A stretch of 64,000 nt of DNA from positions 128,001 through 192,000 of the IMG/VR virus record IMGVR_UViG_3300010224_000001. One strand, written 5' to 3'. Shown piece by piece: positions 4,083 through 53,616 of this stretch. How positions within the stretch are numbered: the first letter of the stretch is position 1; every line of letters starts with the position of its first letter. The position numbers and the translations under genes are program-made. Source of the DNA: a virus. The notes under the pieces were generated by a model that did not search any database, was not told where the DNA came from, and worked only from the letters and a program-made list of their open reading frames with translations.

Positions 4083-4520
4083 TTATTTATTCAGCAGATT
4101 TTTATCGAAGATCATACCGACGAGATTGTCGAGTTCTTCGATGGCGACATTCTTTTCGTTCTTAGCTTTTGTCAATTCTTCCATATGGAAACCGCTAGAA
4201 CTAATAGCCATGCGAACCTCCATACAGAGCACGATGTTCATTCGCACACCGTCGATCATTACTGCCGGTTCAGATTCAACCATACTACCCGGTAAACCTG
4301 GATGTCCGATAAAGAGACCGATGTTAACCAACGGATCCTTATCAATCAACTGAACCAAGGTCATTGCATTCTGACGATAATGGTAGAATACCGTTAGGTC
4401 AGTTGTACCATTATCGCGAATGATGTCGCTATTTGAAGCGATATCGAGGAGTAAGACTTCGCGTAAGCAGTCGAGTTGTTGCTGATTCAGGTCATGTCCG
4501 TTAATACTTACAGAACGCAT
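4083..4520 (-). CDS. hypothetical protein
   Basis: ORF with SD; N-terminus (SVSINGHDL) resembles that of 5541..6077 (TVRINGITL). Confidence 0.7.
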   Translation of the reverse strand: MRSVSINGHDLNQQQLDCLREVLLLDIASNSDIIRDNGTTDLTVFYHYRQNAMTLVQLIDKDPLVNIGLFIGHPGLPGSMVESEPAVMIDGVRMNIVLCMEVRMAISSSGFHMEELTKAKNEKNVAIEELDNLVGMIFDKNLLNK

Positions 4521-48985: not shown

Positions 48986-49528
48986 TTAATCAAACAGTTC
49001 TTCAGCAGAGATGGAGGGTCGTTCACGATAGTCATCGTAAGCTTGAGCATGTGCTGCTGCAAAACCGTTGTTTTCAGTTGTGACGATGGGGTGATCGAAA
49101 TTCCAGTTGTACTTATCGTACTCGTTGGATTTATAGTCCGTCACGTAACGATCATCGTTCTTCTGAGGATCGTATTGCGGAATCAAAACCATTGCCGGTA
49201 CGCGACCATGCCCTTTATCTAGCATCTGCAAAATGCTATTAGCAACGCCGTGACAGAGTTCGCTCTGCGTGAGATGCAGAGGCTTGTTATTCGCCCAGTC
49301 TTCCGCGATGTACCAAGCCTGCACGCCAATCTCATTAGCCTGAAGATCATCGCTAGCGGGTTCCATGGGATTGGAAGCGTCCGGATCTTTCTGCTGATCC
49401 AACACAGTAGACCTGACACCCACACCTTGTGGTTTATAGCTGCCCGGTTTTACGACTTCTTCGATCACTCGGTCTATATCACTGCGACCAATCTGATCTA
49501 CGCTGAGTACTTTTCCATCGACTTTCAT
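48986..49528 (-). CDS. hypothetical protein (paralog family C)
   Basis: WYIAEDWANNKP..CHGVA..SAEELFD. Confidence 0.75.
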   Translation of the reverse strand: MKVDGKVLSVDQIGRSDIDRVIEEVVKPGSYKPQGVGVRSTVLDQQKDPDASNPMEPASDDLQANEIGVQAWYIAEDWANNKPLHLTQSELCHGVANSILQMLDKGHGRVPAMVLIPQYDPQKNDDRYVTDYKSNEYDKYNWNFDHPIVTTENNGFAAAHAQAYDDYRERPSISAEELFD

Positions 49529-49555
49529 GTCACACTCCTTTCTAAGAAGCTACAC

Positions 49556-49978
49556 TTAAATCTTGACGATCTTACGGAAACGACCGCCTACGGCAAAGTT
49601 ATTGATCAGTTCATGCACTGCGTTCGATTTACTTACAGCACCCATTGTGACGCTATGTTGCGTAACTTTATTCTTGACAATGAATTTTGCAAATCGCAGT
49701 GACACAGTTTCTGGCTGGGTACTCTTATTGAGTTTAACCTCGACAAAGCTGTCCATCTTCATACCGAGATCACGGCATGTGAATTTGACAATACCCATCG
49801 GCGCATAATCGCCATTGAAATCAAAGTCGATTTCTGCGGTAGCTTCGAGTGAGCCACTTACGTCAGGGAAGTAGATGCTGCGAGGAGTGCGATTGTTTCG
49901 CAATTCATCAATGAGAGGAAGCATGAAGTTAAATTCTTCACGGTTTTCCAGCTTAGCTTCGTTGATAATAACTTCCAT
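49556..49978 (-). CDS. hypothetical protein
   Basis: ORF in operon. Confidence 0.65.
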   Translation of the reverse strand: MEVIINEAKLENREEFNFMLPLIDELRNNRTPRSIYFPDVSGSLEATAEIDFDFNGDYAPMGIVKFTCRDLGMKMDSFVEVKLNKSTQPETVSLRFAKFIVKNKVTQHSVTMGAVSKSNAVHELINNFAVGGRFRKIVKI

Positions 49979-49986
49979 TGTTCTTG

Positions 49987-50409
49987 TTACCTTTTCTTGT
50001 TCGTAAAAGTTGATTCAGACAGACTAAAAGAGCGCACAATGCGTTCGAAACTACCCTCAGGGGTAATCTCAAACACAAAGGCGTAAATCGTTTTGGGGCG
50101 CTGTATGTTCTCGCAAATGCGTAACACCAGCTGTCCTGGAATGTTGGACATCCAAGTCAAAGACGCTTTGATCTCGGCTTCTTCGTTATCAAGCTCTTTC
50201 TTGATGCTGAAAACGTAAGTCGCAATCGTATCGGTAATTTGTTGTTTGAGCGCTTTGTTAGGAGTGCAGGTGCGAATCAAATCTGCTAGTGTATCGGCAG
50301 TGGTCCACATCACTGCATTTTGCATGTAGAGGAAAATGCCAGGATGTTCATTTCCTCGGGTAGCACGCATGAAGTTTCTAAACCAGATCGGTTGTTCGAG
50401 CGAATACAT
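49987..50409 (-). CDS. hypothetical protein
   Basis: First ORF downstream of the omegaRNA-like region. Confidence 0.65.
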   Translation of the reverse strand: MYSLEQPIWFRNFMRATRGNEHPGIFLYMQNAVMWTTADTLADLIRTCTPNKALKQQITDTIATYVFSIKKELDNEEAEIKASLTWMSNIPGQLVLRICENIQRPKTIYAFVFEITPEGSFERIVRSFSLSESTFTNKKR

Positions 50410-50449
50410 GTAAGCTTCTTTCTTGAGTTTTTAATAAACAGGAGTCCTC

Positions 50450-50560
50450 TGGCTGACTCTCTAATGGTAATCTGGCATTCCTCAATTTCAGGATTCCTGC
50501 TGCTGATCGCTCCACTACACGATTCACTTGACAGGCTAGCTGGGTCTACCCGGCCCTTGT
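50450..50560 (-). ncRNA. TnpB omegaRNA (reRNA) scaffold plus putative guide
   Basis: GGGCCGGGTAGACCCAGCTAGCCTGTCAAGTGAATCG...CAGCAGGAATCC resembles IS605-family tnpB 3' RNA scaffolds; boundaries approximate. Confidence 0.7.
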
Positions 50561-50574
50561 AAAGTTAAAGTAAT

Positions 50575-51753
50575 TTATCTAGCGAAGCTAAATTCTGAAG
50601 CCTTGTTGTAAATATTCATAGCTGCCACTACATCAGCATTGTTAGAATATCCGCAATCAATGCAACAAAACTGTGATTGTGTCTTACGATTCTCTTTAGC
50701 TACAAAGGAACAGCTAGGACAAGTTTGACTAGTGTGTTTAGCGTTTACAACAGCTAAATAAGAACCATACCAACCACACTTGTAGGAGATTTGTCTTAAT
50801 AGCTCACCCCAACCTTGCTGTAGGATAGAGCGATTAAGTCCTCGTTTCTGAGCCACATTCCTACCAGGCTGTTCAATCGTACCTCTAGAACTCTTTGACA
50901 TTTGAGTAATCTTCAAATCTTCCATAATCACCGCGGCGTGGTTTTTGCTGATGTAAGATGAAAGTTTGTGAAGAGTATCATTACGCATGTCGGAAATACG
51001 TTTATGTTGCTTTGCTACTTTAAGTTTTGCTTCGTCGTGATTACGAGAACCTTTGACTTTACGAGTAAATCTTTTCTGTAAAATCTTGAGCTTTTCATAA
51101 GTTTCTCTCATTCGAGGATTATGATCAGTTATCTTGACTAGAGATCCATCAAAGGTAGTTGCTAGATGAACAATTCCAACATCAACTCCTATCGACTTAT
51201 TTGAAGTATTATATCTTTTCTCAATCTCGATTTCGCACAGAACGTTCGCATACCAGTGACCGGCTCTGTGCGAGATGGTAATTGACTTCGGAATACCTTC
51301 TAACGATCTATCTTTTCTATACTTAACTAACCCTACCTTTGGTAGCTTTAAATGCTTTTCTCTAATTTCGAAATATTGAGGAATCCTAAATGAATCACTA
51401 ATACCTTTCTTTTTGAATTGAGGGTAATTAGATTCTTTTCTAAAAAAGCGTTGAAAAGCCATACCAAGATTAGCAAGACTCTGCTGAAGGACTTGTCCAG
51501 AGCAATCGTTTAACCAGAAAGTATCAGGATTTTTCTTAAGTAACACTAACTCATTGCTTAATGAAAATACATTTACACTGATACTTTGCTGATGAAGTTC
51601 TTTCCAGCGCGCTAACCCCCAGTTATAAACAAAACGAGAACAACCGGAGAATTGCTTGAATATTTTCTCTTGTGCTGCATTACAGTCAAGTTTATATTTA
51701 AACGTTTTGTTGATTTTATTGACCCTTCTAGAAGGGTCTGATGAAACTATCAT
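50575..51753 (-). CDS. tnpB: TnpB RNA-guided endonuclease (IS200/IS605 family)
   Basis: N-terminal HTH (CSRFVYNWGL), RuvC-I GVDVG, RuvC-II MEDL, Zn finger TSQTCPSC..CIDC, RuvC-III NADVVAAMNI. Confidence 0.95.
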   Translation of the reverse strand: MIVSSDPSRRVNKINKTFKYKLDCNAAQEKIFKQFSGCSRFVYNWGLARWKELHQQSISVNVFSLSNELVLLKKNPDTFWLNDCSGQVLQQSLANLGMAFQRFFRKESNYPQFKKKGISDSFRIPQYFEIREKHLKLPKVGLVKYRKDRSLEGIPKSITISHRAGHWYANVLCEIEIEKRYNTSNKSIGVDVGIVHLATTFDGSLVKITDHNPRMRETYEKLKILQKRFTRKVKGSRNHDEAKLKVAKQHKRISDMRNDTLHKLSSYISKNHAAVIMEDLKITQMSKSSRGTIEQPGRNVAQKRGLNRSILQQGWGELLRQISYKCGWYGSYLAVVNAKHTSQTCPSCSFVAKENRKTQSQFCCIDCGYSNNADVVAAMNIYNKASEFSFAR

Positions 51754-51795
51754 CTTTACCTCCTTTGAAGAAAGATAATCGTAGTGTATATGTTA

Positions 51796-51814
51796 GTAAT
51801 ATATACTTGAAAAA
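51796..51814 (-). promoter_or_regulatory. phage early promoter upstream of tnpB
   Basis: TTTTTCAAGTATATATTAC (exact TATATTAC) about 42 nt before the tnpB ATG; SD AAAGGAGGT. Confidence 0.75.
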
Positions 51815-51835
51815 CTATCTAGTCTAAAAATGAAC

Positions 51836-51885
51836 AAAAAAAAGAATAGCCTAAGCCATTCTTTTTGTAGACCCGAAGGTCTACG
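51836..51885 (-). terminator. tandem hairpin terminator
   Basis: GTAGAC-CTTCGG-GTCTAC then AAAAAGAATGGC-TTAG-GCTATTCTTTTTTTT on the minus strand. Confidence 0.75.
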
Positions 51886-51891
51886 TTTATA

Positions 51892-52056
51892 TCAAGCACA
51901 CCACCAAGGACGTTTCCATGGATCGTTAGAACGAGCACAGATGAAAGCTTCGGTGCGTTCAATGGCGGTGGGTTCCTTACCAGTCTTTCTGCGGTAAGTG
52001 TCCAAGCACTCGCGATAAAGCGTGGCAGCTTTACCTTTGAGTTGAATGATTGCCAT
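51892..52056 (-). CDS. small hypothetical protein (54 aa, not in ORF track)
   Basis: MAIIQLKGKAATLYRECLDTYRRKTGKEPT..., SD GGGAGAG. Confidence 0.6.
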   Translation of the reverse strand: MAIIQLKGKAATLYRECLDTYRRKTGKEPTAIERTEAFICARSNDPWKRPWWCA

Positions 52057-52067
52057 TAGACTCTCCC

Positions 52068-52328
52068 TTATCCTGAAACCACGTTGAAAGTCTTATGAAA
52101 GTCCACAGCGGTGTAGACCTCCGTCAGTTCTTTGTTGGGCATCTTGACAACGAAGTTGCCAGGACGAACCATCACTGCATCACGGAGCATGTCCATCTGG
52201 CTGGCGTTGACCCATGCAGTGCCATTCTTATCCGTAGTGACAAGACGACACTTTACGCCTGGCTGCCATTCCCAGGCTTCACCCTGAACAACTATGGGTT
52301 CTACCTTGAGCTTTGCAGTAGTTTTCAT
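52068..52328 (-). CDS. hypothetical protein (PGDYG-like)
   Basis: VRPGNFVVK...DFHKTF pattern. Confidence 0.6.
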   Translation of the reverse strand: MKTTAKLKVEPIVVQGEAWEWQPGVKCRLVTTDKNGTAWVNASQMDMLRDAVMVRPGNFVVKMPNKELTEVYTAVDFHKTFNVVSG

Positions 52329-52329
52329 T

Positions 52330-53616
52330 TTAGTCCTTCTTATTAGGGTCCGAGGTAAAATTACCTTCTTCGGTTTCACCATCATCGATGTAGGTAGTTT
52401 TATCGGACAACATTTCATCTGAACCAGGATCGTTATCAGCAAACTTCACAAGCAGTAATTCATCATCGCCAATGTATGGAATGAGGCGACTTTTCAGATC
52501 ATCCCTGGTAAACTTGACAGTTTCTGGAAGACCTTTAACGACCTCACTGATAAGTTCCTGACGATGTTTCAGACTACCATCATACTCCATAACCTCATCG
52601 CCTTCGCGCGGAATATGTTTTTCCGCGTTAGCCATGAGTTGCTCCTGCTCCATCCTTGCAAACTTCTGCTTGAGAAGATCACCCAAGCTAGGTGGATTAC
52701 CTTGTTTGTCTTTAGGACGAGTAAGCTCAGCTGGAGATTCGAGAAACGCGCCAGCAACTGCGCTGTTGCATAACTTAATTGGTTTTCCATCTTCTCCGGT
52801 TGGTGGAAATGAGAACATTCCCGGAATGAATGGACTGTCAGAAGTATCGTCAGATGCGACAAGATCTGCGGTGACATCGTAGTCACGATAACCGCTAGGA
52901 ACATACTTGTCAGCGTCATCGAAAATTACAACCGCACGAGGAATGGAATCCAAAGCATTCATGGATTTCATGATGTCTCCGTCATATTCTTCCTGCGCTG
53001 TATAAGCTTTCATGCGGCACTTCGGAATAAGACGTTTGACAACTTGATGAAGCTTCTTCTTGCTAACATGGTAACGATGCGGGCCATCAAATGTTTTGGT
53101 TGGCTCAATGACTTTGACGATATGCGTGTCGAAAATCATACCGACGAGTTTCTCATGATTCACAAGCTCGTCAGGTTTCATGTACTTATTAGAAACGTAC
53201 ATGACCAAATCATCGAAGGCACTTACATCGTAATAGGAAGGGTGCTTGATCCAACCGTATTGAATCGCCAGGTAATTCTCTACCTCCCAGAATTCTTTGA
53301 AGAAAGCACTGTCGTCACCGTTATCGATCATTGCCACACCTGGAGCACGGTGAGTGATCTCCAACACATTCAAAATGCTATATGTTTCTGGTTCAGCATT
53401 TTCTTTTGGAGTGTACCAAATATGCGCCATCGGTTTGCCGGTGATGACGTAATTGTCCGGCGTGTTCTTACTCAGCTTCTGAACTTCCAGCTTGATGTGT
53501 ACAGCGTCAATTACCTTTCCATCAGAATGGCTGTATGCTTTAACCACAGCGATTGTACCTTTGCTGAAGAAGGCAGGCGAGAACTTACGACGATACGGAT
53601 TAAATTTGTTGCTCAT
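52330..53616 (-). CDS. hypothetical protein (paralog family D)
   Basis: FSPAFFSKGT, RAPGVA, VSKKKL..KC.M..Y.AQ shared with 53662..54564. Confidence 0.75.
   Translation of the reverse strand: MSNKFNPYRRKFSPAFFSKGTIAVVKAYSHSDGKVIDAVHIKLEVQKLSKNTPDNYVITGKPMAHIWYTPKENAEPETYSILNVLEITHRAPGVAMIDNGDDSAFFKEFWEVENYLAIQYGWIKHPSYYDVSAFDDLVMYVSNKYMKPDELVNHEKLVGMIFDTHIVKVIEPTKTFDGPHRYHVSKKKLHQVVKRLIPKCRMKAYTAQEEYDGDIMKSMNALDSIPRAVVIFDDADKYVPSGYRDYDVTADLVASDDTSDSPFIPGMFSFPPTGEDGKPIKLCNSAVAGAFLESPAELTRPKDKQGNPPSLGDLLKQKFARMEQEQLMANAEKHIPREGDEVMEYDGSLKHRQELISEVVKGLPETVKFTRDDLKSRLIPYIGDDELLLVKFADNDPGSDEMLSDKTTYIDDGETEEGNFTSDPNKKD

Follow-up and report, generated by a model that had tools for sequence, protein, structure and literature searches.

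The right end of an insertion sequence (IS) of the IS605 type does double service, as a DNA hairpin for the transposase TnpA and as an RNA scaffold for TnpB. In the omegaRNA of ISDra2, as described in PMC10097598, the loop of stem 1 is pseudoknotted with nucleotides (nt) -5 to -3, stem 2 encloses stem 3, and stem 4, with a UUUA loop, is followed by the guide. Here, a tnpB locus was analyzed in 64 kb of viral DNA (the window), positions 128001-192000 of the 322,570-bp IMG/VR record IMGVR_UViG_3300010224_000001, which has direct terminal repeats (genome label G000 C1). From its sequence, the locus is very probably a TnpB-omegaRNA unit from which the features required by TnpA have gone and in which the RNA core persists, in a form whose age allows two distant jumbo phages to have it in common.

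Elements of the InsQ/TnpB subfamily begin after TTATC and lead into GCCGTAAAAC and a hairpin, and end with GTAGGAATC, a hairpin and a terminal GAGGATGTCA(A). The pattern GTAGGAA(T/C)-hairpin-G(A/G)GGA(T/C)GTCAA was present in 30 of 239 fetched loci, and the form of the right end that the first-pass annotation of this DNA had given, GGAATCC followed by a hairpin, is therefore correct for the subfamily. Copies of the same element at different sites (L015 and L016; L024, L025 and L028) diverge immediately past GTCAA, which fixes the right end of the elements there. TTATC stands 4–7 nt before G(Y)GCCGTAAAAC in 12 of 14 distinct left ends of the relatives and also in Escherichia phage RCS47, and TTATC is the point from which copies lying in different contexts begin to be alike. 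It is probably the target-adjacent motif (TAM) of the family, as compared with TTGAT in ISDra2; a literature search for a TnpB with TTATC found nothing relevant. The insQ element of RCS47 has the same right end, ...GCAGGAATCCACGCCCTTCGGGGCGTGGAGGATGTCA, and serves as an ordinary comparator for phage-borne copies: it is a solo insQ with full ends and TTATC (L255; FO818745.1, 31230-32438), located between ddrB and ddrA/darA of this P1-like phage.

The product of the tnpB open reading frame (ORF; Table 1), which is closed by a TAA at 50577-50575, matched the Pfam families HTH_OrfB_IS605 (2.9e-14), OrfB_IS605 (8.8e-22) and Cas12f1-like_TNB (1e-19). Its closest solved structure was ISDra2 TnpB (8h1j; E 3.4e-54, residues 15-385). 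When the two were aligned, GVDVG paired with GVDVG, the glutamate was kept, and the aspartate of NAD/DRD was kept as well. The RuvC residues D191, E278 and D374 and the zinc-finger residues C345, C348, C364 and C367 were invariant in a 20-sequence alignment of the window TnpB and 19 homologues, so that the D-E-D triad and the C-terminal zinc finger of a TnpB nuclease are both present. Among 2,531 homologues, the closest (P0001–P0014, 47–70% identical) all have just 8–15 residues left after (M/I)N(I/L/V), a motif conserved close to the C-terminus, while farther homologues extend beyond that motif with ...RAGHA.LACGE.... Statements about this short-C-terminus clade as a whole are based on protein C-termini and on two DNA loci, that of the window and a second one, L003. 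No CRISPR array was present in 49000-53000, nor any repeat family with more than two copies, and the locus thus has neither the array nor the repeats that accompany the nuclease gene in type V CRISPR-Cas or TranC-like systems.

TldR proteins resemble the window TnpB in being phage-borne TnpB derivatives without tnpA or recognizable left and right ends (LE and RE) and with their own guide RNA adjacent (PMC10705468). According to the same source they act as repressors, and an RNA-guided binder or regulator of the TldR kind, acting for instance on a promoter of the phage or of its host, would also suit the self-contained transcription unit found here. Such a function is very unlikely. TldRs are described as having a deteriorated RuvC site, with the triad lost and often the zinc-finger/RuvC C-terminus too, and as having a clade-specific partner gene and occurring in temperate phages (PMC10705468), whereas the window protein retains the complete triad and zinc finger, has no conserved gene partner (the neighbors differ between the window and L003) and belongs to a jumbo phage encoding chimallin.

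To define the scaffold, alignment A3 combined the window, L003 and 18 ordinary, hairpin-bearing right ends. RNAalifold returned five nested helices, to which the pseudoknot between the stem-1 loop and the TGTC just 5' of the right end was added by hand. There were 23 distinct canonical right ends; those left out of A3 were L027, L044 and L047, near-duplicates of L011, L016 and L020, and L032 and L167, with a divergent 5' part in which the anchor was not located. Alignment A4 and the covariance model R1 used 16 of the 18 relatives, without the window or L003; L010 and L164 were dropped because of a 25-nt hairpin insertion. Searched against both strands of the window, R1 gave a single match, end-to-end, at 50560..50472 on the minus strand (50.0 bits, E 1.1e-12), in agreement with the omegaRNA proposed earlier for 50438-50600.

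Table 1. Coordinates of the tnpB-omegaRNA locus and its control signals, numbered on the window.
Feature	Position	Strand	Basis or remark
Two terminator-like hairpins upstream	51885-51866, 51866-51839	minus	sequence scan
Upstream control region, no IS left end	51885..51754	minus	
Sigma-70-like site TAGACT-17-TATATT containing TATATTAC	51826-51798	minus	scan
TTATC	51778-51774	minus	20 nt before tnpB ATG
Strong Shine-Dalgarno sequence AAAGGAGG	51766-51759	minus	
tnpB ORF, 392 amino acids (aa)	51753..50575	minus	ORF list and Pfam
A/T-rich spacer, 18 nt, stop codon to scaffold	50574..50557	minus	sequence
omegaRNA scaffold, 84 nt	50556-50473	minus	coordinates derived from A3 columns; R1 match
Stem 1	50556-50552 with 50546-50542	minus	A3/RNAalifold
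Pseudoknot, 5' strand GGTA and 3' strand TGCC	50550-50547 with 50477-50474	minus	
Stem 2	50535-50531 with 50500-50496	minus	
Stem 3	50525-50519 with 50510-50505	minus	
Residual 4-bp hairpin TCCT/AGGA	50493-50490 with 50482-50479	minus	
Candidate guide GATTACCATTAGAGAGTCAG	50472..50453	minus	start 50472 or 50471; end of homology with L003 and R1
Terminator-like hairpin GAGTC-8 nt-GACTC plus CTGTTTATTA	50459-50433	minus	consensus match alone

In the R1 alignment, the internal stem H3 (38 model positions) was reduced to 3 nt and the right-end hairpin H4 (24 positions) to 7 nt. The scaffold accordingly measures 84 nt in the window and in L003, compared with 133–164 nt in the 18 relatives. The relatives' scaffolds close with GTAGGAATC, a hairpin of 9–10 bp and GAGGATGTCAA, while the right end in the window reads GGAATCC-TGAAATT-GAGGAATGCCA, then GATTACCATTAGAGAGTCAG, and leaves a hairpin of 4 bp (UCCU-gaaauug-AGGA). 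The deletion in the window fuses CAGGAA to TCC, and AGGAA flanks the lost segment on both sides in the relatives, which suggests that the deletion arose by slippage or recombination between the short AGGAA repeats. Two ordinary elements differ in the opposite direction: in L010 (4219-4281) and L164 (4209-4271) the right-end hairpin has a loop enlarged by a GC-rich insertion of 25 nt (CCGCGC.AGCGG...), and the tip of this hairpin thus tolerates expansion as well as loss.

Elements of the insQ type have the scaffold sequence of stem 1, the pseudoknot and stems 2 and 3 in common with the window, and likewise the end motif GGAATC...GAGGA(A)TG.CA; the elements of this type in RCS47 and at the IMG/VR loci L009 and L064 encode TnpB proteins 40–45% identical to that of the window. 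They differ from it in having the 9–10-bp right hairpin, H3, the terminal GTCA(A) and the left end TTATC-N4-7-G(Y)GCCGTAAAAC-hairpin, and many are accompanied by a Y1 tnpA. The order of stems and pseudoknot is also that of the ISDra2 TnpB-omegaRNA complex (8H1J, 8BF8; Nakagawa et al. 2023), which has no counterpart of H3 either; H3 is an extra stem of the window's family, between stems 2 and 4, and has been deleted in the window. As described, the ISDra2 scaffold has 116 nt, a full stem 4 and an ORF overlapping it, in contrast to the 4-bp stem 4 and separate ORF of the window.

The structure of the family was well supported by the alignment. Over 40 pairs, 96.2% of cells were paired compared with 77.8 +/- 1.0 in shuffles (0 of 500), and only 39–48% of cells paired when the partners were slid by 1–3 columns. 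Changes on both sides occur somewhere in the family at 28 of the 40 pairs. The pseudoknot helix is 98.8% paired, with both-sided changes at two of its four pairs, and it reads GGTA/TGCC in the window as opposed to GACA/TGTC in the relatives, such that all four pairs are kept, one of them by a two-sided change. This compensatory change argues for selection at the RNA level. The right-end terminus has changed in the same place, from TGTCAA in the relatives to TGCCA in the window; together with the matching change in the stem-1 loop, it indicates that the DNA signal for TnpA was damaged while the RNA pairing was repaired. The locus thus has a structured scaffold 3' of tnpB with a pseudoknot just before the guide, as is typical of TnpB/OMEGA systems. 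The first-pass annotation had proposed that the right-end hairpin was lost and the RNA-end motif kept, and the R1 alignment and the pseudoknot both bear this out; the 4-bp remnant and the loss of H3 go beyond what it had seen.

The minimum free energy fold of the window scaffold retains stems 2 and 3 and the 4-bp hairpin. No omegaRNA family of Rfam matched in 49800-52300 at E up to 10. The weak matches obtained there, to a RybB-like model (22.9 bits) and two snoRNA models, fell far under the gathering scores and within the ORF, and were set aside. The RybB-like match (51351-51441, plus strand, antisense in tnpB) has an E of 0.12 and a gathering score of 40, and is likely due to chance. The same is likely true of the match in inverted orientation (82%) that 17 nt at 51375-51391 make with the scaffold end, 50470-50486.

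The shortened form is not confined to the window. L003, taken from a 218,701-bp IMG/VR contig, has a fully intact TnpB, 55–58% identical to that of the window depending on the method. Both deletions recur in its scaffold, which is again 84 nt long. The IMG/VR scan reached no other member of the close clade as DNA, and profile scans of metagenome contigs and of genome contigs (the latter from 185,579 species genomes) found no TnpB of this clade, the best being 43% identical. A scan of IMG/VR for the short-scaffold pattern returned the L003 contig again (L242) and a match inside a 945-aa ORF (L243), which was rejected as chance. Across the two scaffolds 61 of 84 nt are identical (73%), as against 59% of nt in the ORF, where identity is 41% at third positions and 55% at the aa level. 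In stem 3, both sides differ at two of six pairs and pairing is intact there. The similarity stops at the right end; tblastx of the 7-kb L003 locus against the window detected tnpB and the scaffold alone in common, no neighbor protein of the window occurs in the L003 record, and the upstream regions are unlike each other (score 22, compared with 22.9 +/- 3.7 in shuffles). A shared flank past the guide was considered and not counted, as its local score of 19 was marginal (13.2 +/- 2.1 expected). Scores this high also arose in 8 of 500 mononucleotide shuffles, in 25 of 500 shuffles of the dinucleotide type and in 20 of 1000 segments drawn at random from the genome.

These data bear on the minority possibility that the locus is a decaying relic, in which an IS605-type element lost its ends by deletion, the ribonucleoprotein (RNP) does nothing or does not matter, and the ORF has escaped damage only for lack of time. 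Both TnpA substrates are degraded, the fold energy is at the level of shuffles, and stem 1 has a mismatch. The surroundings of the locus are also variable, and known phages offer no homologues of them; its GC content is 0.34–0.40 across 50600-51900 compared with about 0.45 to either side, and this low-GC island suggests a foreign origin. Decay does occur in the family. In L013 (identical to L014), the ends and scaffold are intact and tnpB stops prematurely, 80 nt short of the scaffold, where GGCTATTAAAAC replaces the GGCTA(T/C)...AA(C/T)AA(C/T) of the relatives, giving a decaying copy with a conserved RNA. Against decay at the present locus, third positions near saturation, taken with the two deletions common to the window and L003 at their level of protein identity, indicate an old form. 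Neither ORF is broken and each keeps all the invariant residues, the scaffold is better conserved than the ORF, and compensatory changes are seen in the pseudoknot and in stem 3.

Loss of the transposon ends was also assessed. The window has a 4-bp stem and GCCA at its right end, in contrast to the 9–10 bp and GTCA(A) of IS200/IS605-type elements, and on the left there is a lone TTATC just 20 nt before the ATG in place of a hairpin following a target/TAM motif. The left-end motif GCCGTAAAAC was absent from 50300-52500 on the minus strand at up to two mismatches. A search for the Y1 HUH transposase (PF01797) gave no match in the 322,570-bp genome, with the control positive in 6 of 14 named genomes; a TnpA might be encoded by the host. 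No Y1 tnpA was found in the L003 record, which is 82% complete. IS1341-type solo tnpB elements likewise have no tnpA; they differ in keeping LE and RE and in being movable in trans, and the solo relatives L005, L013, L015 and L016 retain both hairpins, unlike the window.

At L003, the left-end motif GCCGTAAAAC is retained (ATGCCGTAAAAC) with its hairpin cut to 4 bp. The two L003 hairpins (2885-2915 and 4205-4227), CCTT-gattg-AAGG on the left and TCTC-gattta-GGGA on the right, have 4 bp each and similar loops, and this parallel shrinkage hints at co-evolution with some end-binding factor. Such co-evolution would fit a still-mobile IS, a short-hairpin form moved in trans by a Y1 transposase that accepts 4-bp hairpins and is supplied by a host or by another element. 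The unrelated sites of the two loci likewise imply that the element moved at least once. We nonetheless consider present mobility quite unlikely: the window has no left-end motif, it carries GCCA where TCA(A) is kept in 30 relatives, L003 and RCS47, each phage has one copy and no tnpA, and a pattern scan of the 185,579 species genomes found no clade member (best 43% identical). In the window genome, tnpB and the scaffold each occur once.

A further feature that had been remarked on was the separation of the ORF from the scaffold. The ORF does stop at 50575, before the scaffold start at about 50556, and stem 1 begins 18 nt past the stop. The same arrangement was present in 10 of 20 aligned loci, with a gap of 6–18 nt in nine and 80 nt in L013, and in the remaining 10 the ORF overlaps the scaffold by 65–146 nt. 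Eight of the decoupled loci are full-hairpin elements (8 of the 18 hairpin-bearing relatives), with gaps of 6–12 nt in seven, L013 being the eighth. A Y1 tnpA lies beside the decoupled L009, which is in A3, and beside the decoupled L064, of the same element type as the A3 member L020. Judged by these loci, decoupling is ordinary and no mark of domestication, and its standing as a special feature did not survive the comparison.

The letters at 50560-50531 on the minus strand, ACA AGG GCC GGG TAG ACC CAG CTA GCC TGT, do read TRAG*TQLAC as claimed, and by coordinate count the frame differs from the present tnpB frame. Among more distant relatives, proteins whose reading frame continues into the scaffold finish with ...RAGHARLAC (P0021), ...AAGHAVIAC (P0016) or ...ARGHRVLAC (P0015). 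In ISDra2 TnpB, the tail encoded over the scaffold is reported as disordered and dispensable (PMC10097598), by which TRAG*TQLAC can be regarded as the sequence of stems 1 and 2 viewed in a coding frame. The peptide may be a dead remnant, as had been proposed, or may never have been coding in this lineage.

Both carriers of the short form encode chimallin. The L003 record has a chimallin matching PDB 7sqq (E 3.3e-19) and PhuN 8fne (9.6e-24), and the window genome has a homologue of it at C1:37394-39139 (E 5e-48, 29% identity). Both are therefore jumbo phages of the nucleus-forming type, distantly related to each other. By chimallin, the nearest isolate to the window phage is Burkholderia phage FLC9 (35% identity; 321,833 bp). 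A second, divergent chimallin-like ORF of 566 aa (C1:265214-265735; L245 738-2438, minus strand) weakly matched PDB chimallin (E 1.9e-4) and the chimallin of the L003 record (E 1e-4). Relatives without tnpB were sought by megablast of 49500-52500, which found none. Neither tblastn of both neighbor proteins against phages nor a scan of the 428-aa neighbor protein against IMG/VR contigs turned one up. No RNA run was listed for the locus. Pieces of the locus in three DNA sequencing runs were contigs of 150–250 nt with no joints and none spanning the element, and weigh neither way.

The guide had been predicted to start near 50472, and this held to within 1 nt, the start being 50472 or 50471, as homology to L003 and R1 ends at 50473/50472. 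The functional length was assumed to equal that in ISDra2, about 16 nt (PMC10097598). The earlier observation of no second copy in the window extends to the whole genome, where the guide 20-mer had no second match at up to four mismatches and its first 16 nt none at up to two. The first 12 nt had three near-matches in the genome, none preceded by TTATC. One of these lies at 52048-52059 on the plus strand, where the 12-mer of 50461-50472 (minus) recurs inverted with one mismatch (GATTGCCATTAG, after TTGAAT). It marks the start of a 54-aa ORF about 300 nt upstream of tnpB, and the two copies thus bracket the unit. An estimated 1.4 such matches are expected per genome and three were seen; this near-copy is probably chance.

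Outside the genome, the guide 17-mer had six matches in IMG/VR, about the number estimated for chance; four were in one gene family, none followed TTATC and none extended. The best match in the phage collection, 17 nt long, lay outside the seed (E 3), and the plasmid collection gave none. The window guide bears no relation to that of L003, and each continues into its own phage's intergenic DNA. The lack of a second copy had been taken to fit a foreign target; nevertheless, a unique guide is the ordinary outcome for the flank-derived guide of any IS605-type element, and is thus no mark of one.

A domesticated, active TnpB with a fixed guide against foreign DNA (a host chromosome, plasmid, defense island or unrelated phage), acting in the cytoplasm, is unlikely on this evidence. 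One would expect the guide of a conserved weapon to be retained, yet it differs between the window and L003, and no match beyond chance was obtained in IMG/VR, phages or plasmids. The arrangement does have several features that such a nuclease would show: there are no transposon ends and no tnpA in the phage, the unit has its own promoter-like site and flanking terminators, the nuclease residues are kept, and the guide is unique in the phage. With chimallin encoded, a cytoplasmic nuclease would not meet the phage DNA inside the shell. Loss of LE and RE is also said to accompany the domestication of TldRs (PMC10705468).

As for the control signals, terminator-like sites were more frequent in the region than in shuffles (6 compared with 1.3 +/- 1.1). 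The downstream hairpin overlaps guide positions 14-20 and precedes the ATG of the next gene at 50409. Upstream, the 54-aa ORF (51892-52056, minus strand) has its own Shine-Dalgarno sequence and is followed by two back-to-back terminator-like hairpins (51839-51885), one of them bidirectional (GTAGACC-TTCG-GGTCTAC). The sequence TATATTAC was considered as a phiKZ-type early promoter recurrent in this phage and was not supported, its 7 genomic copies falling short of the 16 expected. No 10-mer or longer word of the tnpB upstream region, T-runs and the Shine-Dalgarno sequence aside, was repeated beyond a few times genome-wide.

The history proposed for the locus would begin with an IS605-type insertion sequence of the InsQ/TnpB subfamily whose scaffold was cut from about 135–140 to 84 nt. 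The resulting unit would no longer be movable by TnpA peel-and-paste, yet would still make an active RNP. tnpB and the scaffold would be transcribed together, from the promoter-like site to the hairpin behind the guide, and TnpB would excise the scaffold from its own mRNA, as described for TnpB, leaving about 16 nt past 50473 to act as the guide. Activity of the RNP is somewhat favored, because the protein is intact, the scaffold is conserved above the level of the ORF and the pairs have changed in a compensatory manner. Our judgment is evenly balanced as to whether this is a stand-alone, TnpA-independent TnpB-omegaRNA unit, probably active and perhaps a homing or competition nuclease.

The later steps are put forward with less confidence. 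The RNP may cut DNA with a TTATC-like TAM next to the flank sequence, and such DNA would correspond to the allele without tnpB in a related phage infecting the same cell; the predicted junction of such an empty site is a left flank ending in a TTATC-like motif joined straight to GATTACCATTAG.... Recombination might then copy the unit into that phage (TnpA-independent 'non-restorative homing'), or the rival might suffer damage. Birkholz et al. reportedly described, in 2024, an intron endonuclease taking part in competition between co-infecting nucleus-forming jumbo phages. The role proposed here resembles that of phage homing endonucleases in cutting the allele that lacks the nuclease gene in a co-infecting relative; these recognize DNA by protein contacts, whereas here recognition would be by a guide RNA copied from the flank. 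Guides that are derived from the flank and not conserved fit TnpA-independent homing or competition. Homing of this kind onto co-infecting phages or plasmids is an idea already in print (review PMC13565253). Literature searches on TnpB in jumbo phages and in nucleus-forming phages gave no account of this arrangement, and texts from the former treat TnpB only as a Cas12 relative; the supplementary tables of TnpB/omegaRNA surveys might list the short form. A nuclease-competent TnpB lineage free of TnpA, with a minimized 84-nt omegaRNA and serving as an RNA-guided homing endonuclease between co-infecting nucleus-forming phages, is offered tentatively, as possible rather than probable.

Several observations weigh against an active, homing unit. 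The fold energy of the window scaffold is no better than that of shuffles (z -0.65; 43 of 200 shuffles fold equally well), and stem 1 contains a C-A mismatch. In ISDra2, the WED domain is described as contacting stem 4 (PMC10097598), so the near loss of this stem might cripple the RNP; no data on a stem-4 deletion were found in review PMC13639567. The TAM of the window is taken from its relatives alone, and the TTATC before the ATG may be there by chance. Neither a guide target (in the genome, IMG/VR, phages or plasmids) nor a tnpB-less relative was found. Phages that form a nucleus reportedly keep DNA-targeting nucleases away from their DNA (PMC11797060), and a homing RNP would therefore have to enter the shell or act before its closure. 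The left-end motif and shrunken hairpin of L003 may leave room for continued mobility via another transposase. The short form is known as DNA from two loci, and selection is read from a single comparison between them.

The window and L003 can be regarded as a natural experiment in which the constraint imposed by TnpA has been removed, and the surviving parts (stem 1, the pseudoknot and stems 2 and 3) show what RNA function needs. If the RNP is active, the 392-aa nuclease of the locus comes with a natural scaffold of 84 nt, which would be useful for compact editors. It would also raise the question of whether a DNA nuclease made by the phage acts inside the shell, in homing, or outside it, on the host, plasmids or rivals. 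A nuclease-active TnpB that persists without transposition would then be a missing stage between the selfish IS passenger and the domesticated TldR and Cas12 forms. Should the homing lineage prove real, stem 4 and the TnpA hairpin would be dispensable for the RNP, and no earlier natural case would be known of a TnpB retained for nuclease activity once both transposon ends were gone.

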